Assembly: GCA_009777475.1 (NCBI GenBank)
Contig: WRLU01000007.1
Coordinates: forward strand, 6,532-70,531
DNA from: Oscillospiraceae bacterium
Lineage (GTDB): Bacteria > Bacillota > Clostridia > Oscillospirales > UBA929
Direction of reading: 5' to 3'
DNA: 64,000 nt
Shown here one piece after another: positions 8,421-64,000 of this stretch. Below the pieces are notes generated by a model. That model did not search any database. It was not told where the DNA came from and worked only from the letters and a program-made list of their open reading frames with translations. The first letter of the stretch is position 1. Each line of letters starts with the position of its first letter. A program made the position numbers and the translations under genes.

Positions 8421-8471
8421 TGTCCGGAATTGTTTTTGAATTCCTAAAGGGTATGATCGGGGGAGTAGCCT

Positions 8472-9770: not shown

Positions 9771-9773
9771 ACT

Positions 9774-12270: not shown

Positions 12271-14208
<1,938 letters not shown>

Positions 14209-14288
14209 AGGAAGAAATAAACCATGCTGTCTTATCATGCGGACGGAAAAGTGCCGGTAACTTGGATGCGTAAAGGGAGGGGAACCGC

Positions 14289-15431: not shown

Positions 15432-15479
15432 GTGCTACAGACAGCGAAATAAGCTTGCAACCGAGAGGAGAAATAAGTA

Positions 15480-17981
15480 ATGTCAGACAAACACACCGGA
15501 CAAGAACATGAAAACGTAAGTTTTGAGAATCAAAAAATCATACCTGTCGATTTAGAGAGGGAAATGCGAACGGCATTTCTGCAATACTCTATGTCGGTCA
15601 TAACCTCGCGGGCACTTCCCGATGTGCGGGATGGGCTGAAGCCGGTACACAGGCGCATACTCTACACCATGCACGAGGAAAACCTGACGCCGGACAAGCC
15701 CTTCCGCAAGTCTGCAACTGCAGTAGGCGATGTGCTGGGACGGTACCATCCCCACGGCGACCAGTCTGTCTATGATGCACTTGTGCGTATGGCCCAGCCA
15801 TTTTCCATGCGGCATATGCTGATTGACGGCCACGGAAACTTCGGTTCGGTGGACGGCGACCCTCCCGCGGCCTACAGATACACCGAGGCACGCATGAGCA
15901 AGCTTGCGGTGGAAATGCTGCGTTACATTGAAAAGGAAACGGTGGACTTTATACCTAACTATGACGGCTCACGCAAAGAGCCGACAGTCTTACCCTGCCT
16001 CTTTCCCAATCTGCTAGTCAACGGATCTTCGGGAATAGCGGTTGGCATGGCAACTAATATACCACCGCATAACTTAAAGGAAACAGTCGGGGCTATCCTG
16101 TGTGTGATTGACAACGAAGAAGCCGAACTCGAGGATTTGATGGAACATCTGAGCGGTCCGGATTTCCCGACTGCCGGTCAGATTTACGGAAAGGCTGGCA
16201 TACGGCAGGCGTATTCATCCGGCAGGGGCAAGGTGCGTGTACGAGCTAAGGCAGAAATAGAAGAATATAAAAATAAGATGCGTATTGTTGTAAGCGAGCT
16301 TCCCTACCAGGTCAACAAGGCGGAGCTTGTAAAGCATATCGGCACACTGGCACAGAGCAAACAACTCGAGGGCATTTCCGCCCTGCGCGATGAGTCCGGG
16401 CGTGCCGGCATGAAAATTGTCATTGACCTAAAGCGGGATGCCAATGCGCAAGTAGTTCTAAACAAATTATACGCACAAACCAGAATGCAGACAACCTTTG
16501 CCATTAACATGATTGCGCTAGTTGGCGGACAGCCCATGACATTGGGGCTGAGGCCTATTTTAGACCATTACATCGCCCATCAAAAGGAAGTCATCTGCCG
16601 CCGCACAGAGTATGATCTGCGCCGTGCCTTGGAACGTATGCACCTTTTGGAGGGCCTGAAAATAGCGGTTGACAACATTGATGAGGTAATTAAAATCATC
16701 CGCTCAAGCTATAACAATGCTAAATCGCGCCTGATGGAGCGTTTTGGCCTGTCGGATGTACAGGGTCAGGCTATCGTGGATATGCGGCTGGGAAGGCTGC
16801 AGGGACTTGAAATTGAAAAATTACAGGCTGAAATAGACTCTTTGGCGTTAGCAATTGTGGATTACCGTGATATTTTAGCTAAAGACGAGAGAGTAAAGGA
16901 TATTTTACGCAATGAGCTGACGACCCTTTCTGAAAGGTTTGGGAATGTCAGGCGTACCGAAATCGTTGATAATGAAGACGAAATTGATTTAGAGGATTTA
17001 ATAGAGCGTGAGGACTGTGTGTACACATTGACCCAAGTTGGATACATGAAGCGTACTCCCCGCTCAATCTACCGCTCCCAGAGGCGGGGCGGCAGGGGCG
17101 TTGCAGGTCAGACGGTGAGAGATGAAGATTACATCAAGGAATTGTTTGTCGCGAGTACCCATGACGACATTTATTTTTTCACCACCTCCGGGCGTATGTT
17201 CAAAAAACGAGGCTATCACGTGCCCGAGGCATCCCGTACGGCAAAGGGGCTGAATTTGGCAAACCTTCTCCCTCTTGAGGCCGATGAAACAGTTACCTCT
17301 GTTATCCCGATGGGGGATGATGAAGAGGTGGGCTACCTATTCTTCGCAACTAAACACGGTATTGTTAAGCGTACACGCATGGATTTGTTTGCATCTGCCG
17401 GACGGAAATCCGGCTTGCGCGCGGTTAGCCTTGATGAGGGCGATGAGCTTATCGGTGTACGCAAAACCGATGGCAATCAGGATATGCTGCTTGCAACCCG
17501 GGGCGGGCTTGCCATTTGCTTCAATGAAACCGGTGTTAGGGAGGTAGGGCGATCTGCCCGGGGAGTTATCGGCATACGTTTGCTTGAAGACGACTATGTG
17601 ATCGACTTGGCGTGTGCAAGGGCAGGTGCCGAGTTGCTGACTGTAACCGAAAACGGTTTCGGCAAGCGTACCCATATCGATGAATACAAGCGTGGCGGCG
17701 AGGCCCAAAACCGTGGCGGCAAGGGCTTAAAAAACCAGAATTTAACTGAACAAACCGGCAAGGTCGCCGGAGTGCGGGTTGTCGATGAGGACGACGACAT
17801 TATGTTCATCTCAGACGATGGCGTAATTATTAGAACAGCCGTTGCTGGAATCCGCCGTTGCTCAAGAACCTCAAAAGGTGTTATACTCATGCGTTTAGCC
17901 AAGGGCGCAAGAGTAATAACCTTAGCACGTACATTCAAAGAAGAAGAAGAAGAAGAGGAGCAGGAAATCCACGAGGAATAA
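15480..17981 (+). CDS. gyrA: DNA gyrase subunit A
   Basis: [29 protein letters not shown] (active-site Tyr region), a C-terminal beta-pinwheel and an acidic tail. Confidence 0.97.
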
Positions 17982-21371: not shown

Positions 21372-21625
21372 CTAAATAAGCAAGAGAGCCTTTCGGCTCT
21401 CCTGTAAGGTTGGCATTTGGCAGGCGTAGCATTCTCCTGCGTCTCTCGGGTTGCCCCTGTCAATACCAGCGGCGTGTGGTCGCTACGAAATCCACCACCT
21501 CAAACACCCAACCTTATTGTTCGACAGGATAAAGGGTTGTCGGCAGGGCCGGCTGTTCCTGCATCACTTTTGGCCGCTGGGGCGCGTGGATGCCGTTGTC
21601 CACCCCAACAACCCATTACCATCAT
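21372..21625 (-). ncRNA. Candidate structured RNA 'A' (~250 nt), family unassigned
   Basis: Begins just downstream of a near-consensus promoter and ends at GAGAGCC-GAAA-GGCTCTC plus TTGCTTATTT. It contains several perfect 7-9-bp long-range complementarities and no credible ORF. Confidence 0.5.
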
Positions 21626-21827: not shown

Positions 21828-22868
21828 TCAAAAAAGGCGGTGCGGCACCCATACTCTCCTACGAATGGTCGAAGGCCAGCGGCAAGGGACCCGATGGCAG
21901 CTGGCTGCATCGGCTCGACCCAGCAATTCTCGCTCAATCCGCTTTTTATTGCTGAGTTCAATGGCATCACGGATGGCTTCTTGCTGTGTGTCTATTTTGC
22001 GAAAGATGGCATCGAGTTTTTTATCATCATCATCTTCCTGTTGGTTTTTCCATACTTTAGAGAGAAGCTCATAGAGTTCTTGACCATCCGGGAAGTCGTT
22101 ATATCCCAACAGCATATCGTCCCAAAGGCGAGGGGTGCTTATGGCGGCAACATATTCTGCTTCAGTGCTGTTTTGGTTTAAGTGAGCAAATGCGTAGTGC
22201 ATCACTTGGCGGTCTAAATTCATGCGTACACTCGCAGAGATTGCTCCAACGTTATACAAAAGTTGGGCTGCCTCCAGCATTTCTTGGGGCGAGGAAAACT
22301 TCAACCCACCTAAAATTTCTTTCTGTTGCGCTTCAGGGGAGAGTCCGGCTAAACCGTATTTCTCAGCATAGAACAATGCAGCGATGGGACTCATATAAGT
22401 GTTATCCCGTAGCCCTTGAATCTCTGTCGGCGTGAGAAAAGCATATGATTGGGGATTCGCCTCGTATTCTTCAACGGTCGCTGACTTATGAAAACCAGGG
22501 ATTCCTGCCTCGGCCAATTCGTTACGAAACTCTGATGTTATTTCCGCATATTTTAGCCTTGTAGATGCTGCCTCTGCTGAAAAACCAAGGTCGGGTATAT
22601 TGTTTTTTGTTTCAAAGTCATCCCCATGAAGCGTGGCGTATTTGGTATAAATTTCAGCATATTTATCCAGCCACATCAGCGTTTCAGCATCCAACTCGGA
22701 TCGCACCTCAGCGATGCGGTCAGCAGCAGACGGAACGGCGGTTGCGATAGTTTGCGATTTCTGCAGTTGTGCCAAGATTTTTGTGAAGCCATCACCGGCA
22801 ATGCCTGATGTTTTTGACGACTGTAAATTGTTCACAGAAGGCGTAGTAGTCAAGCCTGATATGTTCAA
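21828..22868 (-). CDS. Hypothetical protein (347 aa from TTG 22868, or 362 aa from ATG 22916)
   Basis: Long ORF with protein-like composition. TTG at 22868 (MNISGLTTTPS...) lies 6 nt after GAGGAGGA, whereas ATG 22916 has no RBS. I recognise no family. Confidence 0.6.
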   Translation of the reverse strand: MNISGLTTTPSVNNLQSSKTSGIAGDGFTKILAQLQKSQTIATAVPSAADRIAEVRSELDAETLMWLDKYAEIYTKYATLHGDDFETKNNIPDLGFSAEAASTRLKYAEITSEFRNELAEAGIPGFHKSATVEEYEANPQSYAFLTPTEIQGLRDNTYMSPIAALFYAEKYGLAGLSPEAQQKEILGGLKFSSPQEMLEAAQLLYNVGAISASVRMNLDRQVMHYAFAHLNQNSTEAEYVAAISTPRLWDDMLLGYNDFPDGQELYELLSKVWKNQQEDDDDKKLDAIFRKIDTQQEAIRDAIELSNKKRIERELLGRADAASCHRVPCRWPSTIRRRVWVPHRLF

Positions 22869-22957
22869 ATTGCTTCCTCCTCGTATAAAGCTATATTTTC
22901 TGCGAAAAATTTTCATGCTTTTCGCAATGTATACATCGACCGAAACCCCATATGTCT

Positions 22958-23124
22958 TTAGGGAAAAAGGGCTGCGGTTATATTTGGAATACCGCAGCCC
23001 TTTTGTTTGGTTTTAGCCGATGAAGAGGTTTTGGCACTTTGGCGAGTGTACCCCTTCCCGCATTTCTTTTGACCCGAAGGGTGCGTAGCAGCACAATCTC
23101 TACTTCAAAGCACCAACCCATTGT
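22958..23124 (-). promoter_or_regulatory. Leader RNA 'B' with an intrinsic terminator (attenuator or riboswitch-like)
   Basis: Runs from promoter B to the AAAAGGGCTGCGGT / ACCGCAGCCCTTTT stem (22965-23004) plus a U-tract, about 50-100 nt ahead of the orphan ORF. Confidence 0.5.
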
Positions 23125-25369: not shown

Positions 25370-26530
25370 CTATAGAGTTTTTATAAATTCCCTTAGGCGC
25401 GACAGTGCCTGTTTAATGTTATCAATAGAATATGCGTATGAGCATCTGACATGACCTTCCCCGCAATCACCAAATGCTGTTCCGGGAACAACCGCCAGCT
25501 GTTGTTCCCTTAACAGCCGGGTGCAAAAGTCTTCGCTGGACAAGCCAAACCTACTGATAGACGGAAAGAGGTAAAAGGCCCCCTTTGCCTCAAAACAGTC
25601 TATTTTCATTTTACGCAACTCATTCAACATAAAACGTCTTCTAGAGTTATACTCTCTTCGCATATGATCAACCCTTGTCGCCCCATTGCGGAGGGCCTCG
25701 ATTCCTGCGTATTGTGCAATGGTGGGTGCACACATCAGCACATATTGGTGTATCTTGGTCATAGCCTCAATAAGCGAAACAGGTCCGCAAGCGTAGCCAA
25801 GCCGCCAGCCGGTCATGGCAAATGCCTTTGAAAAACCGTTGAGAACTATTGTTTTTTCAGACAGCCCCGGAAAGGAGGCTATGCTTGTGTGTACCGCATC
25901 GCCGTATGTGAGCTCGGCATAGATTTCATCGCTGATTACAACAAGTGCCCTATCCCTAAGCAGGGAAGCTATCTCCTCTAAATCCCTGCCCTCAAGAATA
26001 GCGCCCGTGGGATTGCTTGGATAGCTTATCAGGATTGCTTTAGTTTTTGGAGTGAGTCTTTTCTCAATGTCCCCTGCGGTTACCCTAAAGCTGTTTTCGG
26101 CACTTGATGGGACCGAAACAGGCACACCGCCCGCCATAATTACACAGGGTTTATATGACACAAAGCAAGGTTCAACCACCAAAACCTCATCACCCGGTTC
26201 AACTATTGCCCGCAAGGCTATGTCGATGCCCTCGCTGGCACCGACTGTTACAACAATCTGTCTGTCCGGGTTATAGCTCAGGCTATACTTTGCCGACATA
26301 TAGCGGCTGATTTCATCACGCAGCTCAGGCATTCCGGAATTTGAAGTGTACATGGTGCGGCGGTTTTCCAGCGAAAATATAGCTTCCTCACGAATGTGCC
26401 ATGGTGTGGTAAAATCAGGTTCACCCACACCCAAGGAAACTACATCCTCCATTTCGGAAGCTATATCAAAAAATTTACGTATGCCGGAAGAGGGGAGATC
26501 CTGGACTACTTTCGATATAAAATCATTCAT
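25370..26530 (-). CDS. PLP-dependent aminotransferase, class I/II
   Basis: SKAFAMTGWRLGY (PLP-lysine motif), ..NPTG.. and a 386-aa size. Confidence 0.9.
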   Translation of the reverse strand: MNDFISKVVQDLPSSGIRKFFDIASEMEDVVSLGVGEPDFTTPWHIREEAIFSLENRRTMYTSNSGMPELRDEISRYMSAKYSLSYNPDRQIVVTVGASEGIDIALRAIVEPGDEVLVVEPCFVSYKPCVIMAGGVPVSVPSSAENSFRVTAGDIEKRLTPKTKAILISYPSNPTGAILEGRDLEEIASLLRDRALVVISDEIYAELTYGDAVHTSIASFPGLSEKTIVLNGFSKAFAMTGWRLGYACGPVSLIEAMTKIHQYVLMCAPTIAQYAGIEALRNGATRVDHMRREYNSRRRFMLNELRKMKIDCFEAKGAFYLFPSISRFGLSSEDFCTRLLREQQLAVVPGTAFGDCGEGHVRCSYAYSIDNIKQALSRLREFIKTL

Positions 26531-27009
26531 GGCGAAACAATCATCCTTTCATCGCCCCCATCCTGCTCAAAAATAATCCTATGGTTTTTATATGTTTTCA
26601 TCACAAAATGGGTTGTTGTGCTGAGAACAGATTCAAGGGAGGCTATCTTGTCGGAAACAAACAGCGAAATTTCCTTTAGGCTGTTACCTTCGACAATGAC
26701 TGATAAATCGTATCCTCCCGACATAAGATAAACTGCCTTGACCTCATCAAATCGAGCTATTCTTCCGGCGATTTTGTTAAACCCCTGACCGCGCGCCGGA
26801 GTAACCTTTACCTCAATAAGTGCGGTTAGAAAATCGCTGCCGGCATTCTCCCAGTTAATACAGGCGCAGTATCCGCATATTATTTGCTCTTCCTCCATTT
26901 TTGTAATCTCAGACCTAACCTCGGCCTCCGGCAGACCCAGCCGTACAGAGATTTCCTCCGGTGTCAGCTTGGCATTGTGTTCTAACAGGGATAAAATATC
27001 GTTACGCAT
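26527..27009 (-). CDS. Lrp/AsnC-family transcriptional regulator
   Basis: N-terminal HTH (ILSLLEHNAKLTPEEISVRLGLPEAEVRSEI) plus an AsnC-type ligand domain. ATGA overlap with the aminotransferase gene. Confidence 0.9.
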   Translation of the reverse strand: MRNDILSLLEHNAKLTPEEISVRLGLPEAEVRSEITKMEEEQIICGYCACINWENAGSDFLTALIEVKVTPARGQGFNKIAGRIARFDEVKAVYLMSGGYDLSVIVEGNSLKEISLFVSDKIASLESVLSTTTHFVMKTYKNHRIIFEQDGGDERMIVSP

Positions 27010-42244: not shown

Positions 42245-43537
42245 TCAAACACAAAATGCGGCATAGTGCGGTATGGCTCGAATGCTGCCGTCTGTACCGA
42301 AATTCTTTTCAGAAAACCGGATAGAATAGGCAGCTTGGTATCTCTCCATGAACACACTTATGCTCTTGGAGCGTGTTTTGATGCCCTTCTTAACCTCTAT
42401 GCCGATAATGTCTGTTTCCTTTTGCATTACAAAATCAATCTCAGCGGTGTGTTCGCTCGTCCAGTAAAACAGCGGGTGTCCGTTTGCGGCCAAAGCCTGT
42501 GCGATATAATTTTCTGCCACTGACCCCATAAACAAATTAGACTCACCGCTTAATATGGTCTGTTGGGGAATGCCTGAACGCATAGCAAGCAGACCGACAT
42601 CGCCTGAATAGAGTTTGAACGATGAGAGGTCTTCGTATACTGCGATGGGGTTTGCGGCATGGTCAATCCTGCGGCACTTCAACACAACGCCCGCCTGAAC
42701 CAGCCAGTCGATAGACGCACCAAACAGAGATGCACCGCCGCCCTTTTGCACCACCTTGTACTGGAATTTTTTATTTTTCTTGGCGAGCTGGGCCGGGATA
42801 GACTCATAGCAAGCACGGATTTTTACCGTTTCAGAGGACTCTGCGTATTTCGCCATATCTGCCACATAGTTGTTGGCAATCTCATTTTGCAGCGGCGGAA
42901 TCAACACCGCTTTTCCGTTTTTGGAAAACGCCAAGACACAAGCGGGCATCCCCCCCACAATGAGATAGCAACGGTAATGCTCTATTGCTTTCTGGTGCAA
43001 TGCGGCTGGCATCGGCTCCATACTTGCACAGCAGGTACGAATGTCCTCAGCTAGCCGTTCTTCCCCAAGCGACCAAAGAAACTCCTCGAAATCCAAGGGA
43101 TACAAGGTCAGGCTTTCCACCTTGCCTACAGGGAAAGAATACTGCTCTCTATTGATAGCCACGCCTAGCAGACTGCCCGCGGCCGCCACATGGTATTCCG
43201 GTGCATTTTCGGCAAAGTATTTCAGTGAGGTCAATGCCCGCTCACAAGATTGGATTTCATCAAAGATAATTAGTGTCTCCCCGGGCAGTATGACATCGTT
43301 GGCCGTGGTTTCCAAAAACCGAATCAGCCGCTCGGGGGTTATATCCCCGGAAAAATATTGGGCAACCGCTTGGTTGGTTTCCAGATTTACATAAATCGCA
43401 TTTTTATAATGCTGCTCCCCGAACTGATTGAGAATGTAGGTTTTGCCCACTTGTCTAGCCCCATACAACAAGAGCGGCATTCTGCCCTCTGATTTGTTTT
43501 TCCAGTCAAACAGCCGCTCTTCAATTTTTCTTTGCAT
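42245..43537 (-). CDS. AAA-family ATPase with a DUF4143-type C-terminus
   Basis: Walker A YGARQVGKTY, Walker B LIIFDEIQ and a 430-aa size typical of the AAA_14/DUF4143 family. Confidence 0.85.
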   Translation of the reverse strand: MQRKIEERLFDWKNKSEGRMPLLLYGARQVGKTYILNQFGEQHYKNAIYVNLETNQAVAQYFSGDITPERLIRFLETTANDVILPGETLIIFDEIQSCERALTSLKYFAENAPEYHVAAAGSLLGVAINREQYSFPVGKVESLTLYPLDFEEFLWSLGEERLAEDIRTCCASMEPMPAALHQKAIEHYRCYLIVGGMPACVLAFSKNGKAVLIPPLQNEIANNYVADMAKYAESSETVKIRACYESIPAQLAKKNKKFQYKVVQKGGGASLFGASIDWLVQAGVVLKCRRIDHAANPIAVYEDLSSFKLYSGDVGLLAMRSGIPQQTILSGESNLFMGSVAENYIAQALAANGHPLFYWTSEHTAEIDFVMQKETDIIGIEVKKGIKTRSKSISVFMERYQAAYSIRFSEKNFGTDGSIRAIPHYAAFCV

Positions 43538-43623
43538 CCAACCGCCTCCCTCGGTTTATCATACTAGGGAGTTTGCCATTATGTCAAGAATAATATATTT
43601 ATATATTATTCTTTCCCACATAA

Positions 43624-44709
43624 CTATCTTGTGTTCATTTTCACCATTTGAAGTGTTTTCACCATCCACTCCAATGCACCGTTAAACCGATAGCCCTTAA
43701 ATCCCGAGGCTTCAAGAATTTCTGCAATCTCATTTTTAGAAATGTCAAGATTGATAAGTCCCTCCAGTCCGCCGCGTTCCTTGGCGATTTCCTGTGCATA
43801 GTCCCAATAAGTGCCGGAATAACCGAAGCTAGTGGACAACTCAGCCGGATTACCCACCGCCTGTACCACCATTTCCTCCGTGTCTTCGTAGAACAGGCTG
43901 CGTCCGTTATCATAAAGCGGATAAAAGGACTCGCCTTGTCCGCTCATTTTAATGGCCACATTGGAAAGATGCCGGTCGTCCTGCCGTGTGATAAAGTCCA
44001 GCAAAATCATTCGGACAATATCGTCTTTGTACTGTGGACGGACAGAAATCAGGTTTTGATATTCGTTGTCAGATCTGGCCCCCTCAAATAGGCGGCGAAA
44101 ATGCACAATGTATTCTCGAGAAAAGTCATAGAGAAAACTTGAAAATACTGTGTCTTTATCAACACGGCAAGCCGGGCAGCAGGGGACACCCAGCTTTTGT
44201 GCCAGCAGATAGACCGCTGTTTCTGATTCCACATCGGTATGCAGGGGGCTGATTCGCTGCTTATAGATGCCGTATTCACCGTTGTGTACGCCATAACGCT
44301 TGATGTTGTAGCCCTCCGGTGTATCAATGCTGTCGCCGATTAGGTCGATTTTCTGACGAAACACCGATGCGAATACATCGGTCATAATTGTTTCCAGTTG
44401 CTCATCCTCACTATGTGCGATCCACAATAGGTCTTTGGGATGGATGCCACGGGTAATTTCCGCAATTCGCAAAACATCGTAGTGAGACAGACCGCAGCGG
44501 AACAATATCCGCTCAATGTCCCGCCGGTCACGGCTGACCGTCCGTTCGGATAAGAACTCTGTGAATTGCTCGGGTGTCCAAAATTTTGCTCCGTGGGTGT
44601 ACAGAGAGACGGCTTGGTTATATTCAGGCAAGGCGAACGTAACGGCACCCGAACGGCTGACGGTGCCAATGGTTTCATCATTCCATTTCAAAATGCGTTG
44701 GTCGCCCAT
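43624..44709 (-). CDS. HipA-like kinase-fold protein (orphan)
   Basis: QDDRHLSNVAI fits the HipA catalytic D-x-H-x-x-N loop, and FYPLYDNG fits the PLYD Mg-binding motif. The start was moved to 44709 because the listed N-terminus overlaps its own promoter. Confidence 0.55.
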   Translation of the reverse strand: MGDQRILKWNDETIGTVSRSGAVTFALPEYNQAVSLYTHGAKFWTPEQFTEFLSERTVSRDRRDIERILFRCGLSHYDVLRIAEITRGIHPKDLLWIAHSEDEQLETIMTDVFASVFRQKIDLIGDSIDTPEGYNIKRYGVHNGEYGIYKQRISPLHTDVESETAVYLLAQKLGVPCCPACRVDKDTVFSSFLYDFSREYIVHFRRLFEGARSDNEYQNLISVRPQYKDDIVRMILLDFITRQDDRHLSNVAIKMSGQGESFYPLYDNGRSLFYEDTEEMVVQAVGNPAELSTSFGYSGTYWDYAQEIAKERGGLEGLINLDISKNEIAEILEASGFKGYRFNGALEWMVKTLQMVKMNTR

Positions 44710-44731
44710 AATCATCACTTTCCCTGAGGAT

Positions 44732-44759
44732 ATTATAGTATAATACGAAATAATGTCAA
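44732..44759 (-). promoter_or_regulatory. Sigma-A promoter of the HipA-like gene
   Basis: Minus strand TTGACA, a 16-nt spacer, then TATAAT. Confidence 0.6.
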
Positions 44760-44799
44760 TCAGCATTGCTCCGCGCCCTCTTCGTTAAAATGGATGCAA
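44752..44799. repeat. 48-bp promoter-upstream element, copy 1
   Basis: AATGTCAATCAGCATTGCTCCGCGCCCTCTTCGTTAAAATGGATGCAA. It matches copy 2 at 43 of 48 positions. Confidence 0.85.
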
Positions 44800-51424: not shown

Positions 51425-52159
51425 TTATACAAACTTGACCTCAATTCCGCCCAATGTGACACTACCTGTAAGTGTTAGCAGTGGAGGATTTTCACATGGC
51501 GAGTCAAATCTATTGTCTATCTCAACGCCGCCAAGCGTACAACTCATTTTATCTATTATCTGCCAATGCCGCGGAACAACAATTTCAATGCCTCCAAAAT
51601 TGCAATTTATATTCATAACAGCACCATATGGACTAAGCTGTGCCTGATCGAAAAAAACTTCAATCGCACCAAAATTGCAATGCAGCTGTATCGTTTCCAA
51701 GCAGTCAGAGTGTAAATATTGGCTTACCCCGCCAAAATCGGCACTGATTGATGGGTTTCTGTCATTATCTATACCTGGGTTCAGTTTATTGCCGTTTTTA
51801 TGCTTTCCTGTATGAACACCTCCAAAGCACACACTGTTTTTGTTAAAATGCTTTCGCGGAAGAAGTATGTTCAGACCGATACAGGCAAGCAGGGCAGTTA
51901 GCCCTAAAGCCCATGGAGCTATATAGGGCAAACCAAGCTGTTTATGGAATAAAATATACAGCACCGCAATAGGGAAAGGGAGCGGGGCAAAAGACAGCCG
52001 TGCCGCACACTGCACAAAAAAAGCTACCGCTAAAAAAGCAGCAACAATGCCTAGCGCACCTACGTTGTAAAAGCTTCCCCTATGAAGCTGGTTATACAGC
52101 ACAAGCATTGCAGCAAGAAGCATAAATGTACCCCATAGCCAATTAAAATTTTTTTTCAT
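51425..52159 (-). CDS. LiaF/DUF2154-like membrane protein
   Basis: N-terminal TM segments and C-terminal repeated GG(I/V)E(I/V) beta-strand motifs. ATGA overlap with the LytTR gene. Confidence 0.65.
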   Translation of the reverse strand: MKKNFNWLWGTFMLLAAMLVLYNQLHRGSFYNVGALGIVAAFLAVAFFVQCAARLSFAPLPFPIAVLYILFHKQLGLPYIAPWALGLTALLACIGLNILLPRKHFNKNSVCFGGVHTGKHKNGNKLNPGIDNDRNPSISADFGGVSQYLHSDCLETIQLHCNFGAIEVFFDQAQLSPYGAVMNINCNFGGIEIVVPRHWQIIDKMSCTLGGVEIDNRFDSPCENPPLLTLTGSVTLGGIEVKFV

Positions 52160-52611
52160 ACTGATGAACTCCTTTCTTCTAATTTTTGTTTAAGAGATTT
52201 GTAATAGTGCCGTGATGCATAAACATTTTTGTAGGTCCCTGAAAACTGTATCTTGCTTGCCGAGGCTAAGTTGCGGTTGATTGCATAAATCATCAATGTG
52301 TTAACAATGGCACCTTTTGCAGCTCTGACAAAATAAGCGGGAAGCAGACGTTCAAGGGCATACAGTCTGTGTTTTACCGTAAAGACATCCTTAGCCGTAT
52401 GTGCGTATACTCTGTCACCGTCTGTTTCAAAAAAGAATATAGATTCAACCGGAAAATAAAATTCCTTTTCGCCCTTGTAAAAGGTCATCTCGTCAGAGCA
52501 GAGGTTATGTATACGCTCCTGCAGCCTTTGAGCAGCTCCATCTTCCGCACCGCATCGTATAATTACTTCAGGCTCCACAATCCCTTCAAGCACCTCAATA
52601 CTTATTTTCAC
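52156..52611 (-). CDS. LytTR-family DNA-binding protein (no receiver domain)
   Basis: IFFFETDGDRVYAHTAKDVFTVKHRLYALERLLPAYFVRAAKGAIVN is a LytTR domain. GTG start has RBS GGAGGTGGGG. Confidence 0.85.
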   Translation of the reverse strand: MKISIEVLEGIVEPEVIIRCGAEDGAAQRLQERIHNLCSDEMTFYKGEKEFYFPVESIFFFETDGDRVYAHTAKDVFTVKHRLYALERLLPAYFVRAAKGAIVNTLMIYAINRNLASASKIQFSGTYKNVYASRHYYKSLKQKLEERSSSV

Positions 52612-52745
52612 ACAAACCCCACCTCCATTCTACCACGGTAGCCATATTCTATCAGCAGGCAAAGACAAATACAATAGAAAAACCGCAAGAGGCAGTATTT
52701 CAGCGTCAAGAGGTAAGGAGAGGATTAAACAGAAGCTCTAGGTAT

Positions 52746-52838
52746 TTATCCACAAAACTCTGTGGATTGTTAAAAACACCTTTTTCTCCACTTTTTAGCT
52801 TATGTGGATAAGTACAGCTAAATACATTCTTGTCCACA
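52746..52838. promoter_or_regulatory. DnaA-box cluster
   Basis: TTATCCACA (52746-52754, perfect), TGTGGATTG (52761-52769, 2 mismatches), TGTGGATAA (52803-52811, perfect, inverted) and TTGTCCACA (52830-52838, 1 mismatch). Confidence 0.7.
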
Positions 52839-52875
52839 TAACCGTGTTAATAAAAAAGCCCCTGCCCTTCTGCAA

Positions 52876-52960
52876 TTTACTTACTTTTCAACAATTCACA
52901 TATACAATAGAAATAAAAAAAACAATAAATATCTTATATATATATTATTTATTCAGACTC
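52876..52960. other. A+T-rich tract next to the DnaA boxes (possible unwinding element)
   Basis: TTTACTTACTTTTCAACAATTCACATATACAATAGAAATAAAAAAAACAATAAATATCTTATATATATATTATTTATT. Confidence 0.45.
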
Positions 52961-53050
52961 AACGTTCCCAATGCAAAAGAAAAAGCGTCGCTATGGTGCT
53001 TTTTCGGAATAGAAGTCCATTAGGACTATTACCGGCAGTGATACGCCAGG

Positions 53051-53908
53051 CTACACCGGATATCCTATGAAGGTGGCACTATATTCGCGCCGCAGTTGAT
53101 TATAGGCGTTTTGTGCAGCACTTTCTTTGGCAAATAGGCCGAACATTGATGGTCCCGAGCCACTCATAGCCGCACCCATGGCATCGTTCTGAAGATATAC
53201 GTCCCGGATTTCGCCAAGTGCTGTTTTTTTTGAAGCCTGAAATTCCTCAAATACATTGAACATACGCCTGGCAAGACTTTTAATGCTTCCATCCCTTATT
53301 GCCTGTTCCAAGCCATGCCAGTCGGGGCGGCGGCAAAGCGAGTGGGCGTTTATGGATGAATATGCTTCCTTTGTTGAAATAGCAACTGGTGGGCAGCAAA
53401 TTACAAATACACATTCAGGAAGCTTTCCCAGGCCGATGAGTATTTCGCCCTTCCCTTCGGCCAGGCACAAGCCGCCCTGATAACAATAGGGGACATCTGA
53501 GCCGATTTCCAGTGCCCATTCCATCATAGTTTCATGGGGTGTAGGGTCGCAAAAATACTCCTTCAAGGCACGCAGAACGGCGGCGGCATCACTGCTTCCG
53601 CCTCCTAATCCGGCACAAATTGGTATATTTTTTTTAATATGTATGTTGATTCCTAAATTGGCACGTCTAGTCCGAGATAAAAATATCTCCGCCGCCTGAC
53701 CGGCTAAATTCCGCCTCCCGCCAACCAGGCCTGCCAAATTGGAACGCACCGTGATGCGCCTGTCCTGGGTTATGTTAATTGACAGCTCATCATACAGCGA
53801 TACCGATTGCATAATCATGCGCAGATCATGGTATCCGTCCTGCCTTTTTCGCAAAACGTCCAGAGCAAGATTCAACTTGGCTGGTGCTTTGACCTGTATA
53901 TCCGGCAT
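53051..53908 (-). CDS. ispE: 4-diphosphocytidyl-2-C-methyl-D-erythritol kinase
   Basis: APAKLNLAL start and the GHMP kinase motif PICAGLGGGSSDAAA. Confidence 0.93.
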   Translation of the reverse strand: MPDIQVKAPAKLNLALDVLRKRQDGYHDLRMIMQSVSLYDELSINITQDRRITVRSNLAGLVGGRRNLAGQAAEIFLSRTRRANLGINIHIKKNIPICAGLGGGSSDAAAVLRALKEYFCDPTPHETMMEWALEIGSDVPYCYQGGLCLAEGKGEILIGLGKLPECVFVICCPPVAISTKEAYSSINAHSLCRRPDWHGLEQAIRDGSIKSLARRMFNVFEEFQASKKTALGEIRDVYLQNDAMGAAMSGSGPSMFGLFAKESAAQNAYNQLRREYSATFIGYPV

Positions 53909-56724: not shown

Positions 56725-59700
56725 ATGGCATTGAAAAACCTTTTTAAATCGACCCTTTCGCTGATATTGGCTCTGTGTATCTTAGCAGGGCTGGTGCCCT
56801 TTGGCACTATGGACACACACGCTGCTGCCGCCTCATACTATTTTACCGAAGCCGGCGCAGGTAATATGGACGCTACGAGCTGGGCAAACGCGGGTTCTTC
56901 TGAGATGTTTGCGGATAAATTGAATGACGCCACAGACGGCGATTCGTTTTATCTTGCCGGTGGTACATATTATCCGAAATATGATCAAGATAAAAATGAG
57001 GCAACTGGCGTAAGTTATGCAGATACTAGATATAAAAAAACATTCTACATAGACTGTGCTGTTTCAATCTACGGCGGGTATAATGATAAAGGTGAAAGAT
57101 TTTTATCAGCAGATGCCACTGACCCCACCATACTCCACGGTAATAATGAAAATCGTGTTATAATGATTGACACTAACAACAATGTTATGCTTGACGGGCT
57201 GACGATAACCGGTGGTCTTTTGAGTGGCAGTGGTAACGTTGATGGTGTGGGCATTTATATAAATGGCACGGCAACAACAATTCAGCGTTGTATAATAAAA
57301 GAAAATAATTCGAGAAACTCTGCCTCACATGGGGGAGCTATTTATTCGCGTCTTTCCCTTACTCCTAATCCGAAGGTTTACGACTGTATATTCATCGGCA
57401 ATACAGCAACCTCATACGGCGGCGTTCATGGGGTTGATGTATATAATTCATATTTTGAAGGGAACACCACTACAAACGGACCAGGTGCTATTTATGGAAA
57501 TGCTGAAAACTGTACCATTATAAATAATACCTCTGGAGATGCGAGTGGGGCATTGAGCGCTATCGACTGGGCAAGGAACAATACAATTATAAACAATTCG
57601 TCACAGTATGGATCCGGTGGTCTTTCTGCTGGCTATGCAGTTGGGAATATAGTAGTTGGCAATACTGCCTCGCCAAGTTTTAGTAAATACGAAGTGTCTC
57701 TGGGTTCATCATCCAGGGCTATGTATAACATTATAGGGGTTGTGGATGAATCAATACTGGGTACAAATAATTTCAACGTATCCGAAGAAACCATGCGAAC
57801 AATCCTCGACTATAGCGACGGCAAATATAACGTTAAAAATAACGGCGGGTTTGCGCCTACAATCGCTGTGGTAAATCCAACTGTGGATATAGGCAACGGC
57901 AAAACGATAATGTGTATGCCTGTTGGAGCGGATGCTGCACCGGAAACAGACCAGCGCGGAGTTGAGCGCAGAACCAACGGTACAGCAACTATCGGCGCAT
58001 TTGAAGCGGCTTATCAGGTTACATACAACTCACAGGGGGGAAGTCTTGTTTCCCGGGGCTATGGATACTACAACAGCACAATTACCGCACCATCACCGCC
58101 CACAAGAGATGGGTATGATTTTGCGGGGTGGTATAGGGATTCATCTTACACGAATGTGTGGAATTTCTCCGCAGACAAAGTAACCGGTCCAATAACCCTA
58201 TACGCAAAATGGGGGCTGAAAAAATACACCGTCACATTTGATTTGACAGGAGGCACCCGCACCGGGGGCGGAGCATTGACACAGACAATAGAGCATGGAG
58301 CTGATGCTGCTGAGCCGTCAGTGACAAGGGCTGGATATGTCTTTGACAGTTGGGAAGGGTCACTTACCAGTATCTCCAGCAACCGAACTATTACAGCGCA
58401 GTGGAATGCCAACACCAATACACTAAGCTTCAGTGCCAACGGCGGCACAGGCTCAATGGCTCCTCAATCATATAAAACAGATGAAACAAAGAACATCATC
58501 GACTGCACCTTTACCCGCGATGGATACACCTTTGCTGGGTGGTCTGTAAGTGCTGATGGGGCTGTTGTTTATGATAACAAGGCATCCTATGCCATGGGCG
58601 CAAGCAGCGAATATACCCTATATGCCCAATGGACACCTAACAACAACATCATCACCTTTGATGCCAACAACGGCACGGATGAAGCCCACACTCAAGCTAT
58701 TGCAACAGATGCAACGGCTAATCTAACCAACTATGATGACTGGTTCACCCCTCCAACCGGACACAGCTTTTCAAGCTGGAACACAGCCGCTAACGGAAGC
58801 GGCATGTCTTACATCAACGGTGCGAGCTACACAATGGGAGCCAGCGCAAGCTATACCCTGTTCGCTCAATGGAGTCCAAACACATATGATGTTACATTCG
58901 ATAAAAACGCGGATGAAGTAGCTGGTACAATGTCTGACCAGCCCTTTATATATAATACTAATGCTGCCCTATATCCAATAGGATATGACCGTCAAGGCTA
59001 CAGCTTTACAGGTTGGGCAAAGGACCCGGATGGCTCTGTTGAGTATAATGATGAGGCTGATTTTACTATGAATGTATTGGGTGCAACCCTATATGCCGTA
59101 TGGGAACCTAAGACTAATAGCCTTGTATTCAACGCCAACGGCGGAGCCGGGACAATGCCGGCTCAAAGCATAAAAACCGCGTCTGCCGCCCAACTGAACG
59201 ATAATCAGTTTACTCGTGCGGGATATATATTCAGCGGCTGGAATACCAAAGCAGACAGCACAGGAGTGTCATACAATGACGGCGATGACTACACTATGGG
59301 CGCAAACAGCGAATACATCCTGTATGCCCAATGGGAGGCTAAGCTCAACACGCTGACCTTCTATCCGGGAAACGCAAACGGTGAAGGCTATACCCAAGCC
59401 ATTGCCACGGATGACTCAGATGAGTTGCTTGAGAGCCGCTTTAGCAGAACCGGTTATACGCAAACAGGCTGGCAATTAGATGGAACAGGGGCTGTGATTC
59501 CCCTTGGTTCGCAGTATACGATGGGAACAAGCTCAAATTACAATCTGTATGCCGTGTGGGAGCCGAATATATATCCCCTGCATTTTGACGCGGGCAATGT
59601 TGTTGTTGCTGGATATATGCCTCCTGTAGATGTTGCCTTTGATGATGCCGTTGCCCTGCCGGAATGTGCCTTTACCAAGCCCGGATATACATTTTCCGGC

Positions 59701-62700
59701 TGGGCGGAATATGAGGCCGGCAATGTTGTATATCTTGACGGAGATATATACCCCCTGAGAACCGAGGGGGCGGTGCTGTATGCTGTATGGGAGGCTAAAG
59801 CCAACACGGTTACCTTTCATTCCAATGACGGAACAAACAATATATATAAGCAGACTCTGAAAACAGACCAAATCGCCTTGCTGGATGCCAACACATTTAC
59901 ACGTATCGGATATACATTCTCCGGTTGGGCAACAAGCTCCGGCGGCACCGCTTTGTTTGATGACTCTGACGATTACATTATGGGTTATGAAGAAAACTAT
60001 GATTTATATGCCGTCTGGCGGCCCAATATATATCAGGTTACATTCAGCGGAAACGGCGCGGTTTCGGGAAGTATGCCCAAACAAGCCATGGCTTTTGACG
60101 ATACCGTACAGCTTAATGCTAATCTGTTTACACGTCCAGGGTACACTTTTATTGGTTGGCGTGATGCGGTCAGCGGAACAGAATATGCAGACCAAGGCGG
60201 CTACAGCATGAAATCTGAGGGTGCGGTCCTCGTTGCTATATGGAGTGCAAATGATAATTTCGTTCTCTTTAATGCAGGAGGCGGGGAAGGGTTTATGCCC
60301 CCGCAAGCTATTAAATCAGGCCTTGAGACACCTTTATCTGGCAATAAATTTACCAAAACAGGCTACAGCTTTGCCGGGTGGGCGTTGTCGGAAAATGGGG
60401 AAATTGTGTATGAAGACGGTGAATTGTTTGATATGCCGTTAGAATCTGTGGTTCTATACGCTGTTTGGACAGCTAATACATATACCCTCTCCTTCCGTGG
60501 GAACGGTGCAAGCTCCGGCAATATGCAGCCTCAGCAATTTGTGTATGATACTCCGGCGGCTTTATTAAAAAATAATTTTTCAAGAGATGGCTACGAGTTT
60601 GTTGGCTGGTCTGCAAAACAAACCACAGACCGCCCAATCAACCCGGTATTTGATTTTTCGGATGAAGAAATATACGCCGTGGATGCCGCGAATGCGGTAC
60701 TGTATGCTGTTTGGAAGCCAAGGGTTTTCAGCGTAACCTTTAAATCAGGCGGTAACGGTACGTTAAACGGCGGTACGGGCGATGTTGTATATAAGTTCTA
60801 TTGTGATGATGATTTGACGCCTCCTGTCCCTGCTCCGGAGGCCGGGTACTTTTTCGGAGGCTGGGATAAGCCCTTGGAGCTGATTGTGCGGGGTGACTCC
60901 GAATATACCGCTGCTTGGACAGAACAGCCCGTATACACCGTGGCGTTCGATCCAAACGGCGGGGCGGGTAAAATGCCGGATCAGCCAATCCAGCGTGACA
61001 CAGCTGCCGTCCTGTATAAAAGCACCTTCAGCAAGCCGGGGCATACGTTTGCCGGATGGTCTGTTTCGGCTGCTTCAAGCACTGAAAACCCGGACCCTGA
61101 CTATGCCGACAATGCGGCTTATACGATGGGTGACAACAGTGTTACGTTATATGCCGCCTGGAGAGTAAATTATTATGATGTGGAGTTTTTCGATTATGAC
61201 GGTGCCTTGTTGAAGTCAAGGCAAGCTGTAAAATACAACATGCCGGCCGTTCCGCCGCAAGAGCCTTTACGTCCGGGCTATACCTTCGCCGGATGGGAGC
61301 CCGGTTATGACAAAATTACTGAAAATAGCGCGATTACGGCGGCATATACTGCCAATGAGAACACTGTCACATATCAAAATGGGGGCGGCACAGGCAGCAG
61401 TATGACCCAAATAATAAACACAGACCAAAGGGCGCGGCTGATGATGAACGCCTTCAGCAAAACCGGGTATTCGTTTGCCGGGTGGCGTGAGGGTGAAAAT
61501 ACCCCTGTTTTGGCTCAAAATGCTTGGTATGTTATGGGCGCGGGCGATGTTACACTCAGTGCTGTTTGGGTGCCGAAGCTGTATGAACTTACCTTTGCCC
61601 CCGGCGGCGGCTCGGGTTCTATGCCTAAAATACCAATGTATTTTGACGATTCGGTAACTCTTCCCGAAGGCTTGTTTACTCGTGCCGGATATACCTTCAC
61701 CGGATGGAATGACGGCCAGAGGACTGCTAGGGCGGGAGAAAGCTATAAGCTGACTGCCACAGGAGCAACCTTAACCGCTGTGTGGTCTGCTGATGAAAAT
61801 ACTATTACTCTTATGCCAAACGGTGGTATGGGAGAGGTGTATTCCGTGTCTGCAAAGACAGACCAAATACTGACTGTCAAAAATCAATTCACCCGCCCGG
61901 GCTACACCTTTGCCGGTTGGGCGGAAGCACCGGGCGGCAGAATCCTGACCCCTGCCGGGGTGCAATATAAGATGGGTGTCTCCGGTATTACGCTGTATGC
62001 CGTATGGGAGGCTAATGAGAATAACATCAGGTTTGTAAACGGAAACGAAGGCTATAATCAGCCGGCCAGAACCGGTGCCAATATTAAGCTTGTGCCAAAC
62101 AGGTTTAGCCGTGCCGGGTATACCTTTGCCGGGTGGGCCTCCTCCCGCGGTCAGGCCAAATCCGAATATAATGACGCCGCCTCAATTACCGTGCCGCCGC
62201 GGGATTTAACCCTTTATCCTGTATGGTCGGCAAATACCAACAATATCGTTTTCAACGCTGACAACGGCAGCAGCGAAACGCTGCGCGGTAAAACAGATGA
62301 GACAATTGCTCTGCCCGAATGCAAGACACCCAAAAAAGGCTACACCTTCACTCACTGGAGTACAAAGGCCGGTGGGGGCGGCGATTCTTATAAGCCCGGC
62401 GGTGCATATACTGTTACCGCTGCCTCCAATAACCAGCTGTACGCCGTATATACCCCTAATAAATACAAAATTGCCTTTGACGCAAACGGAGGCGGGGGCG
62501 CAATGACAGGGCTGAGTGCCGTGTTCGATGACAGTGCTGCGCTGCCAAAAAACAAATTTACAAGAGCTGGCTATAAATTCAAGCAATGGGCAGTCAGCCC
62601 TGACGGACGCGGCGGGGTATATAACAATAAAGAAAAATTTACCTATACATATGACAAAAATATTACCCTGTATGCCATATGGGAGGCCGAGGCGGGGCGG

Positions 62701-64000
62701 GTTGTGTTTGAGCCAAATGGGGCCGGGGGTAAGGTCTATACACAGGAAATCCTTCAGGATGAAGCTAAAAATCTCCTGAAATGCGCCTTTACACGCGAGG
62801 GCTACAGCTTTGCCGGGTGGGCCTTGGAGGAGGATTCTTATGAGATAGAATACCAGGATAAGGCCAAGTTTACCATGAGCCAGTCCCCTAATGTGTTGTA
62901 CGCCGTGTGGATGCCTGAGCTGAATACCATAACCTTTAAGGGCAATGGCGCCGACAGCGGCGAGATGCCCCGGCAGGAAATATTTACTGACGAGACCGCT
63001 GTTCTCCTGCCCAATATGTACGAGCGTTACGGCTGTGTTTTCGCCGGGTGGAGCAGTAATCCTAACATCAGTTCGGTTGAATACGGTGATGAAGCCGAAT
63101 ACCAAATGGGTGTAAAAAATGTAACATTATATGCTGTGTGGAAGGACGATGCGGGTACCGTTATCTTCGACGCCAACGCGCCGCATTCGGGCGGTATGCC
63201 CAGCCAGGCCAACGAGCTGGGTCAGCGGTTTACCCTGATTCCCAACGGCTTTGTGCGCGAGGGCTACTACTTTGAGGGCTGGTCGGTTACGCCCGGAGGT
63301 CAGGCCGAGTATTTGGATGAGGCTGAATTTGTCCTTAGAAAAAAGAGCCTTATTCTGTATGCTGTGTGGAAGCCTGAGTTAAATTATGTTATTTTTGATA
63401 CCTGCGGCGGAGAAGGGCAGGACTTCTATATGCAGGTATATACCGGTGAAACCAAGGCGTTGACACCCAACTCCTTCCATAATCCGGGCTACACCTTTGC
63501 CGGGTGGTCTGTTGTGTCGGGGTTTGAGGAGTCCGTGGACCCCGAGGAGGCTATGCTCACCGAAAAGCCTGTCGGGCGTAAAATTGACTTTTTCGACAAA
63601 GCTCCTTATATTTCGATAATCGGCAGCACCCGGCTGTATGCTGTGTGGGAGCCTGTTGAATATACGGTTATTTTCAACAGCGGGTATGACTTAGGGGCGG
63701 AATACACCCAAAAAGCCCTGTGTTATGAAACATTTACGCTCACGTCCGGCAAGTTTGAGCGGCGGGGCTACACCTTTGCCGGGTGGACAACGGTTGAGGA
63801 GGGCGAGGCGGATGACGCCGAGTATGAGGACGGCGCGGAATTTACCATGGGCATTGAAAATGTGACACTTTACGCGCTGTGGACGCCCAACGAATACCTG
63901 GTAATTTTCGACTCAAACGCCCCCGGGGTCATAGGCGAGATGCCTGCGGAGGCGTATGCATACGACAGCTGGAGCGTGCTGCCGGACTGTGAATTCGACC
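56725..64000 (+). CDS. Giant secreted repeat protein, 3' end outside the window: N-terminal beta-helix-like domain followed by at least 26 Listeria-Bacteroides-type (InlB B-repeat-like) repeats
   Basis: Not in the ORF track. ATG at 56725 gives MALKNLFKSTLSLILALCILAGLVPFGTMDTHAAAA (a signal peptide). My own translation was done at spot-check segments (the start through the first repeats, 59101 and 63901 onward), and these keep frame 1 open to base 63999. All plus-strand ORFs the track lists in this span are in frame 2. The repeats read F.R.GY.F.GW......Y.DG..Y.M....LYA.W. Confidence 0.85.
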   Translation, partial: MALKNLFKSTLSLILALCILAGLVPFGTMDTHAAAASYYFTEAGAGNMDATSWANAGSSEMFADKLNDATDGDSFYLAGGTYYPKYDQDKNEATGVSYADTRYKKTFYIDCAVSIYGGYNDKGERFLSADATDPTILHGNNENRVIMIDTNNNVMLDGLTITGGLLSGSGNVDGVGIYINGTATTIQRCIIKENNSRNSASHGGAIYSRLSLTPNPKVYDCIFIGNTATSYGGVHGVDVYNSYFEGNTTTNGPGAIYGNAENCTIINNTSGDASGALSAIDWARNNTIINNSSQYGSGGLSAGYAVGNIVVGNTASPSFSKYEVSLGSSSRAMYNIIGVVDESILGTNNFNVSEETMRTILDYSDGKYNVKNNGGFAPTIAVVNPTVDIGNGKTIMCMPVGADAAPETDQRGVERRTNGTATIGAFEAAYQVTYNSQGGSLVSRGYGYYNSTITAPSPPTRDGYDFAGWYRDSSYTNVWNFSADKVTGPITLYAKWGLKKYTVTFDLTGGTRTGGGALTQTIEHGADAAEPSVTRAGYVFDSWEGSLTSISSNRTITAQWNANTNTLSFSANGGTGSMAPQSYKTDETKNIIDCTFTRDGYTFAGWSVSADGAVVYDNKASYAMGASSEYTLYAQWTPNNNIITFDANNGTDEAHTQAIATDATANLTNYDDWFTPPTGHSFSSWNTAANGSGMSYINGASYTMGASASYTLFAQWSPNTYDVTFDKNADEVAGTMSDQPFIYNTNAALYPIGYDRQGYSFTGWAKDPDGSVEYNDEADFTMNVLGATLYAVWEPKTNSLVFNANGGAGTMPAQSIKTASAAQLNDNQFTRAGYIFSGWNTKADSTGVSYNDGDDYTMGANSEYILYAQWEAKLNTLTFYPGNANGEGYTQAIATDDSDELLESRFSRTGYTQTGWQLDGTGAVIPLGSQYTMGTSSNYNLYAVWEPNIYPLHFDAGNVVVAGYMPPVDVAFDDAVALPECAFTKPGYTFSGWAEYEAGNVVYLDGDIYPLRTEGAVLYAVWEAKANTVTFHSNDGTNNIYKQTLKTDQIALLDANTFTRIGYTFSGWATSSGGTALFDDSDDYIMGYEENYDLYAVWRPNIYQVTFSGNGAVSGSMPKQAMAFDDTVQLNANLFTRPGYTFIGWRDAVSGTEYADQGGYSMKSEGAVLVAIWSANDNFVLFNAGGGEGFMPPQAIKSGLETPLSGNKFTKTGYSFAGWALSENGEIVYEDGELFDMPLESVVLYAVWTANTYTLSFRGNGASSGNMQPQQFVYDTPAALLKNNFSRDGYEFVGWSAKQTTDRPINPVFDFSDEEIYAVDAANAVLYAVWKPRVFSVTFKSGGNGTLNGGTGDVVYKFYCDDDLTPPVPAPEAGYFFGGWDKPLELIVRGDSEYTAAWTEQPVYTVAFDPNGGAGKMPDQPIQRDTAAVLYKSTFSKPGHTFAGWSVSAASSTENPDPDYADNAAYTMGDNSVTLYAAWRVNYYDVEFFDYDGALLKSRQAVKYNMPAVPPQEPLRPGYTFAGWEPGYDKITENSAITAAYTANENTVTYQNGGGTGSSMTQIINTDQRARLMMNAFSKTGYSFAGWREGENTPVLAQNAWYVMGAGDVTLSAVWVPKLYELTFAPGGGSGSMPKIPMYFDDSVTLPEGLFTRAGYTFTGWNDGQRTARAGESYKLTATGATLTAVWSADENTITLMPNGGMGEVYSVSAKTDQILTVKNQFTRPGYTFAGWAEAPGGRILTPAGVQYKMGVSGITLYAVWEANENNIRFVNGNEGYNQPARTGANIKLVPNRFSRAGYTFAGWASSRGQAKSEYNDAASITVPPRDLTLYPVWSANTNNIVFNADNGSSETLRGKTDETIALPECKTPKKGYTFTHWSTKAGGGGDSYKPGGAYTVTAASNNQLYAVYTPNKYKIAFDANGGGGAMTGLSAVFDDSAALPKNKFTRAGYKFKQWAVSPDGRGGVYNNKEKFTYTYDKNITLYAIWEAEAGRVVFEPNGAGGKVYTQEILQDEAKNLLKCAFTREGYSFAGWALEEDSYEIEYQDKAKFTMSQSPNVLYAVWMPELNTITFKGNGADSGEMPRQEIFTDETAVLLPNMYERYGCVFAGWSSNPNISSVEYGDEAEYQMGVKNVTLYAVWKDDAGTVIFDANAPHSGGMPSQANELGQRFTLIPNGFVREGYYFEGWSVTPGGQAEYLDEAEFVLRKKSLILYAVWKPELNYVIFDTCGGEGQDFYMQVYTGETKALTPNSFHNPGYTFAGWSVVSGFEESVDPEEAMLTEKPVGRKIDFFDKAPYISIIGSTRLYAVWEPVEYTVIFNSGYDLGAEYTQKALCYETFTLTSGKFERRGYTFAGWTTVEEGEADDAEYEDGAEFTMGIENVTLYALWTPNEYLVIFDSNAPGVIGEMPAEAYAYDSWSVLPDCEFD
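58052..64000 (+). repeat. Array of diverged coding repeats of ~75-80 codons inside the giant gene
   Basis: Unit boundaries recur every ~220-240 nt at (L/V)YA(V/Q)W(E/T/K/S)(P/A)N..Y.V.F..NGG. I saw no long identical DNA copies. Confidence 0.85.

Follow-up and report, generated by a model that had tools for sequence, protein, structure and literature searches.

A DnaA-box cluster adjoining an A+T-rich tract 43 kb from dnaA: a candidate relocated replication origin in an uncultured Oscillospiraceae bacterium

In Firmicutes, the gene context of dnaA is the main indicator for predicting the origin of replication, for placing genome coordinate zero and for estimating growth rates from metagenomic peak-to-trough ratios. 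Where, then, might replication begin in a chromosome whose dnaA gene has no recognizable origin on either side? The rnpA-rpmH-dnaA-dnaN context of oriC is regarded as conserved in Firmicutes (PMC7561715). In other phyla, origins at a distance from dnaA have been described, and adjacency to dnaA is usual, not obligatory (PMC10225481). The question is raised by a 64,000-nucleotide stretch of DNA (the window) from an Oscillospiraceae bacterium, in which a first-pass annotation had described, at a distance from dnaA, the layout of a replication origin or of a strong DnaA-titration or regulatory site. At the sequence level this layout held up: the box cluster is significant, it is adjoined by the weakest duplex of the window, and its position is intergenic.

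The source organism is an uncultured bacterium represented by a metagenome-assembled genome (MAG) that encodes SpoIIID, SpoVT, a Spo0A-like protein, CheA/CheW and flagellin and is, as far as its genes indicate, a spore-forming, flagellated member of the Clostridia. Two exact copies of the locus (L081 and L082) are identical in sequence. As first described, the element lies between the GHMP kinase gene ispE (53051-53908, minus strand) and a LytTR gene (52156-52611, minus strand); the distance to dnaA (8472-9770), given as about 44 kb, is 43 kb. The spacer that holds the element (52612-53050) is downstream of ispE and upstream of a minus-strand operon that runs from 52611 down to 49633 and encodes a 151-aa LytTR protein, a LiaF-like membrane protein, an ABC ATPase and an ABC-2 permease. 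Searches of this spacer returned no plausible open reading frame, no Rfam family and no similarity to plasmids. Its features are given below; the alignments refer to the dnaA-dnaN spacer of a relative, L169, which is taken up later.

52627-52674, minus strand: TTGTAT-17-TAGAAT and CTGATA-17-TAGAAT, putative sigma-A promoters for the LytTR operon, from prediction and direct reading; left boundary of the element
52746-52754, plus strand: perfect DnaA box, TTATCCACA; aligns with the first perfect box in the dnaA-dnaN origin of L169
52761-52769, minus strand: DnaA box with 2 mismatches, TGTGGATTG (minus strand CAATCCACA), from the pattern search
52784-52792, plus strand: weak DnaA box with 2 mismatches, TTCTCCACT, from the pattern search
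52803-52811, minus strand: perfect DnaA box, TGTGGATAA (TTATCCACA on the minus strand); aligns with TGTGGAC of L169
52830-52838, plus strand: DnaA box with 1 mismatch, TTGTCCACA; aligns with TCATCCACA of L169
52845-52853, minus strand: weak DnaA box with 2 mismatches, TGTTAATAA (minus strand TTATTAACA), from the pattern search
52858-52867, no strand: G+C cluster GCCCCTGCCC, separating the boxes from the A+T tract, read from the sequence
52870-52955, no strand: A+T-rich tract, candidate DNA unwinding element, from composition and duplex energy
52876-52910, plus strand: 35-bp block TTTACTTACTTTTCAACAATTCACATATACAATAG common to the unwinding side of L169, local alignment score 39
52892-52900, plus strand: degenerate box CAATTCACA with 3 mismatches, within the A+T tract; aligns with the ATATCCACA box of L169
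52979-53005, minus strand: hairpin GAAAAAGC-N11-GCTTTTTC followed by a T run, read from the sequence; probable ispE terminator and right boundary of the element

Several other features of the window were recorded in passing. To the right of the element, a plus-strand gene (56725-64000) encodes a giant surface protein (more than 2425 aa, at least 21 Listeria-Bacteroides repeat domains); the gene runs off the window, and two independent metagenome assemblies break off inside it. Three skipping-rope RNA motifs above the Rfam gathering score (21412-21508, 21535-21613 and 23034-23113, minus strand) flank a 362-aa open reading frame (21828-22916) that has no Pfam match. A D12-class DNA methyltransferase adjoins a 432-aa DUF6996/DUF6997/DUF7226 protein (window 683-1981; L163:9118-9996), and an AAA_14/DUF4143 ATPase is found together with a weakly HipA_C-like protein at 42245-44766; these genes may be of the defence or toxin-antitoxin type.

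Four DnaA boxes within 93 bp had been reported, two of them perfect and in opposite orientation. Reading of the sequence and pattern searches agree with both statements: the four boxes span 52746-52838, and the two perfect ones are at 52746-52754 on the plus strand and 52803-52811 on the minus strand. Further boxes with two mismatches bring the total to six within 108 bp at up to two mismatches, and the two leftmost boxes form an inverted pair with a 6-bp spacer between them. An origin criterion attributed to Mackiewicz, in the form quoted in a passage of PMC7561715, is at least three DnaA boxes at a mean spacing below 100 bp; here there are three boxes with at most one mismatch in 93 bp and six with at most two in 108 bp. 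The stretch 52746-52838 is the sole cluster of at least three boxes (at most one mismatch) in the 64 kb of the window, and a relaxed count of the TCCAC/GTGGA core per 200 bp ranks it first as well, with five cores against three for the next best stretch. The 10 kb to the left of the window (L163) contain no DnaA-box cluster. When the window was simulated 1000 times with a first-order Markov model, any cluster of at least three boxes (at most one mismatch) arose in 12 simulations, and neither a cluster of this kind that included two perfect boxes nor two perfect boxes within 100 bp arose in any of the 1000. Single boxes with at most one mismatch are not enriched across the window (22 observed, 15.6 expected).

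The boxes are followed by the A+T-rich tract that had been described as almost pure A+T. The tract is present, about 32-36 bp past the last good box; its purity was slightly overstated, A+T content being 84% over 52870-52955, 87.5% over 52874-52953 and 90% over 52894-52953. It is nevertheless the top-ranked stretch of the window at 60, 80 and 100 bp (the runner-up at 80 bp has 77.5%) and also its least stable duplex, with a nearest-neighbour energy of -46.0 kcal/mol per 50 bp, about 4.8 standard deviations off the window mean of -69.4 kcal/mol per 50 bp (sd 4.9). In both composition and duplex energy, then, 52874-52953 is extreme in the way expected, at the sequence level, of an oriC unwinding element. 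The short G+C cluster between boxes and tract has counterparts at the equivalent position in the origins of B. subtilis and C. difficile (PMC8287927; PMC7561715).

The places where a Firmicutes origin would be sought first are empty:

9771-9773, no strand: dnaA-dnaN gap of 3 nt, from gene coordinates; the canonical oriC2 spacer is absent
8209-8471, no strand: spoIIID-dnaA spacer of 263 bp without DnaA box or A+T tract, from the pattern search

Even at up to two mismatches, the 263-bp spacer upstream of dnaA has no DnaA box, and the relaxed TCCAC/GTGGA core count finds nothing at dnaA. In place of rpmH and rnpA, dnaA is preceded by spoIIID and a gene for rubrerythrin. The adjacency that is the norm in Firmicutes (rpmH-dnaA-dnaN) is thus missing for the element, which lies 43 kb from dnaA, and in the 74 kb of this genome that were examined there is no other DnaA-box cluster or oriC candidate, both dnaA flanks included; a stronger candidate could lie elsewhere on the chromosome. 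Judged by its sequence, neither flank of dnaA can serve as the origin in this genome. Two further observations concern this region. ARAGORN calls a tRNA-Thr(CGT) at 8519-8588, inside the dnaA coding sequence; there is no Rfam tRNA at this position and the call is almost certainly spurious. Downstream of rubrerythrin, the spacer that leads to the gene for a 1408-aa lectin-like protein contains a near-perfect 40-bp palindrome, GCTTAGCCCCAATTCGGC...GCCGAATTGGGGCTAAGC (7078-7117), which is probably a terminator hairpin.

The same condition recurs among relatives. In a neighbour-joining tree, the closest DnaA sequences form a clade at 51-60% identity. Five of the six distinct members examined (L171, L172, L173, L174/175 and L176/177; DnaA 51-56% identical) share the loss, with a dnaA-dnaN gap of 3-129 nt and no enrichment of boxes in the DNA examined around dnaA. 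None of the clade members whose upstream flank was examined has rpmH-rnpA upstream of dnaA, and the clade as a whole appears to have emptied both dnaA flanks. The sixth member, L169 (GCA_031556035.1), keeps a dnaA-dnaN spacer of 284 bp with five boxes at up to one mismatch and several weaker ones, followed by the most A+T-rich 80 bp of that locus. It has no DnaA boxes upstream of dnaA, and its origin looks monopartite, of the dnaA-dnaN type. In L169 (107-2590 compared with 14190-16103), gyrA lies across the origin from gyrB and on the opposite strand, an arrangement that fits a symmetric inversion around the origin. Where a canonical origin is present, the method recovers it: in Lawsonibacter L178, jag-yidC-rnpA-rpmH, dnaA and dnaN follow one another in the textbook layout, and seven box cores together with a CTACTATTA trio occupy the spacer from dnaA to dnaN. 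The tree does not separate a single departure of the origin from dnaA from repeated ones.

Conservation of the site was also sought from the side of ispE. The best non-identical ispE relatives, from genome contigs, metagenome contigs and the protein database, are 47-55% identical, and their downstream spacers are 5-70 bp long and free of DnaA boxes, so the position beside ispE is not conserved. In the nearest ispE relatives, genes for an AsnC-type regulator, an aminotransferase and ispE stand in one row (L164:3343-5848, L166:901-3406). The AsnC/aminotransferase pair of the window (25370-27009) sits 26 kb from ispE, which indicates that the region has been rearranged.

The element resembles the L169 origin. 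From box to box, it is collinear with the L169 dnaA-dnaN spacer: the first perfect boxes correspond, TGTGGAT pairs with TGTGGAC, and TTGTCCACAT pairs with TCATCCACAT. On the unwinding side, the G+C cluster is common to both and TGCCCTTCT-GCAATTTACTTACTTTTCAACAATTCAC-ATATACAATAG of the window pairs with TGCCGCTCTAGCGTTTTATTTACTTATTAACATATCCACAGGATATACTATAG of L169, the degenerate box at 52892-52900 standing opposite a good box of the relative. As a pattern, the 35-bp block can be written TTTAYTTACTTWTYAAC...ATATACWATAG. None of 1000 full or block-wise shuffles reached its local alignment score of 39. The match also ranks first when both strands of all the fetched loci (2.25 Mb) are compared with the element; the runner-up, at 36, falls in a locus unrelated to any origin. 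This comparison used Smith-Waterman scoring; blastn-short did not recover the L169 match. Scores of 18-23 were obtained for the element against two Lawsonibacter origin spacers and of 18 for L169 against the Lawsonibacter dnaA-dnaN spacer, and given these low values the match between the window and L169 is specific and not generic to origins. A 17-nt motif of the block occurs among the loci only in the copies of the window and in L169/L170, apart from unrelated partial matches.

Homology to a related origin is thus found for one relative, in collinear order and with the best score in 2.25 Mb. With 39 against 36, the match stands only modestly above the database-wide background, and the alignment rests on one relative; the match draws its weight from where it falls, in the one canonical origin of the clade and in the same polarity. 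The shared block might double as the dnaN promoter in L169. In the window no plus-strand gene follows the block, so its retention there would not be explained by a dnaN promoter, which argues for an origin-related role. Synteny through an AI-2E transporter near the L169 origin was considered and rejected; the two proteins are 24% identical and are not orthologues.

Other tests did not favour an origin. GC, GC3 and AT skews, computed by sequence window and by gene over the 64 kb, track gene orientation, with no step at 52.9 kb and no replication component resolvable in this length of DNA. The cumulative skew has its minimum in the window at 54-58 kb, where it is accounted for by gene strands, and a 7.3-kb gene to the right of the element has a negative GC3 skew. 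Placing the origin at 52.9 kb would make about 59% of genes co-oriented with replication, and placing it in the spacer upstream of dnaA about 57%, a difference that does not discriminate. Both flanking genes, ispE and the LytTR gene, are on the minus strand, so that there is no divergent switch at the element, and gene orientation is mixed overall. An origin at 52.9 kb would make the transcription of ispE head-on, and the plus-strand dnaA-dnaN-recF-gyrB-gyrA block (8.4-18 kb) would likewise be head-on to its forks. A head-on dnaA-gyrA block is unusual for Firmicutes. A search by eye for DnaA-trios in both orientations found no run of four or more and no CTA/TTA array at the element. The more permissive BUS rule (a box, a spacer of 0-16 bp and at least three NAN repeats, typically 3'-GAT-5'; PMC8287927) is matched only by GTG-TTA-ATA after the box at 52830, as would be expected by chance. 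The canonical L169 origin likewise has no clear trio, so a missing trio is weak evidence either way. No parS site was found in the 64-kb window. Taken together, the missing orientation switch, the head-on dnaA-gyrA block, the lack of a clear trio and the silent skew do not support reading the element as an origin.

What else could the element be? A chance meeting of box-like words with an A+T-rich spacer can be ruled out for practical purposes, given the simulations, the extreme A+T stretch and the similarity to the L169 origin. The chief rival reading, possible if on balance unlikely, is that the element is a non-origin DnaA-box cluster (DBC) of the kind known from B. subtilis, which would bind DnaA stably near the origin region, titrate or buffer it and maybe affect transcription of its neighbours; it might even be the relic of an origin that no longer fires. 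On this account the A+T tract would be no more than an ordinary spacer, terminator or promoter sequence. The six B. subtilis DBCs (gcp-ydiF, yqeG-sda, ywlC-ywlB, ywcI-vpr, yydA-yycS and thdF-jag) have 4-8 boxes, 0-4 of them perfect, are all intergenic and regulate neighbouring genes (PMC2533591; PMC3245932), and the class has been defined by at least four dense boxes, an intergenic position and a high summed affinity (Ishikawa A value >0.3) (PMC2533591). Our element is likewise a compact intergenic cluster with few high-affinity boxes, proximal to the origin and beside a promoter (PMC2533591; PMC3245932). Its two perfect, one single-mismatch and three weak boxes are within the DBC range. Having only three strong boxes, no more than these non-origin clusters of 4-8 boxes, counts against an origin, and box number alone cannot tell the two apart. 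The unbroken skew and gene orientation, the want of a clear trio and the awkward direction of dnaA-gyrA for an origin at 52.9 kb would also suit a DBC. However, an adjacent unwinding element is no part of the DBC definition, and this cluster touches the weakest duplex in 64 kb. It also shares unwinding-side sequence with the L169 dnaA-dnaN origin, and it is absent from the equivalent position in the nearest ispE relatives, which speaks against a conserved regulatory site. Moreover, replication of this genome must start somewhere, and with both dnaA flanks disqualified a DBC here would have no dnaA origin to act upon.

Alternatively, the boxes might couple the LytTR/LiaF-like/ABC-transporter operon to DnaA activity, as at sda, ywlC and yydA in B. 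subtilis. They lie 72-180 bp upstream of the predicted -35 of plausible sigma-A promoters, and DnaA-regulated genes beside box clusters are known (PMC2533591). We regard this as a very improbable account of the element: the boxes do not overlap the -35 and -10 hexamers, and such a role would account neither for the A+T tract nor for the resemblance to the L169 origin nor for the lack of an origin at dnaA. Control of the promoter would in any case be compatible with a role as origin or DBC and is not a true alternative to them. A search for homologues of the LytTR/LiaF-like operon in the fetched loci of relatives (2.25 Mb) found none.

A separate box cluster came to light in Lachnospiraceae-like genomes, in which 4-8 DnaA boxes (up to four perfect) and an A+T-rich stretch are conserved just downstream of murC (L021:297-522, L034:271-517, L035:537-763, L096:297-522, L115:505-730, L116:503-728, L026:2777-2984 and others). 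These clusters lie about 7-9.5 kb upstream of ispE, near glgC/glgD, malQ and sipL, and dnaA is absent from the annotated part of L021 (1-11 kb). They could be origins or conserved DBCs.

For the element of the window, we favour an origin over the other options on the strength of the empty dnaA flanks, in this genome and in five related lineages, and of the similarity to L169. Over a DBC in particular, it is preferred for the adjoining weakest duplex, the shared unwinding-side sequence and the lack of an origin at dnaA. We therefore propose, with the sequence as our guide, that 52746-52955 is probably the chromosomal oriC, or at least a DnaA-dependent unwinding module, that has moved out of the dnaA-dnaN spacer. 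What the analysis shows is the layout with its significance, the empty dnaA flanks and the resemblance to the relative's origin; from there we infer DnaA binding, unwinding and firing. DnaA-ATP would bind the six boxes, of which three are strong (52746-52853), and oligomerize across the G+C cluster; it could then open the adjoining 85-bp A+T tract, the weakest duplex of the region, at which the helicase would be loaded.

The history of such a module can be sketched in outline. It would have left the dnaA-dnaN spacer, which collapsed to 3 nt, and would now be bounded by the end of ispE on one side and by the LytTR/LiaF-like/ABC-transporter operon promoter on the other, with its orientation relative to dnaA as in L169. 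A speculative path that keeps this polarity is a tandem duplication of the origin together with a block downstream of it, after which the first copy of the origin and the second copy of the block were lost. More tentatively, the whole clade of gut Oscillospiraceae, represented by several metagenomes and MAGs, the assembly of this genome among them, may have uncoupled its origin from dnaA. In these bacteria dnaA and dnaN would form one box-free operon, box-mediated autoregulation of dnaA would be lost, and the single unwinding module would have settled at sites that differ between lineages (here ispE-LytTR), perhaps on more than one occasion, with dnaA-gyrA now head-on.

Among known systems, the element comes closest, as its proposed equivalent, to the oriC2 (incC) dnaA-dnaN module in the origins of B. 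subtilis, C. difficile and other clostridia, which consists of 5-9 boxes in both orientations, a short G+C cluster and an A+T-rich unwinding element (PMC7561715; PMC8287927). Order and polarity relative to dnaA are the same, and sequence similarity extends to the dnaA-dnaN origin of L169. Unlike oriC2, the element lies 43 kb from dnaA between ispE and the LytTR operon instead of in the dnaA-dnaN spacer, lacks a recognizable CTA/TTA trio array such as the CTACTATTA of Lawsonibacter L178, and has no partner cluster (oriC1) upstream of dnaA. E. coli oriC, between gidA and mioC, likewise combines a box cluster with an A+T-rich unwinding element tens of kilobases from dnaA, whereas it belongs to another phylum and has another layout; its 13-mers, GATC sites and IHF/Fis sites are not evident here. 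From the B. subtilis DBCs, the element differs in being joined to the weakest duplex and in resembling the origin of a relative.

Were the element only a titration cluster, the finding would be an ordinary one; it would still leave the true origin of the clade to be found. If it is an origin, a clade with empty dnaA flanks and its replication module elsewhere would mislead dnaA-based origin prediction, the setting of genome coordinates and growth-rate estimates. Such a clade would also provide a natural experiment in three respects: on a minimal origin that is monopartite and has about three strong boxes and no obvious trio, on the regulation of dnaA without boxes in its promoter, and on how gene orientation re-adapts after an origin has moved.
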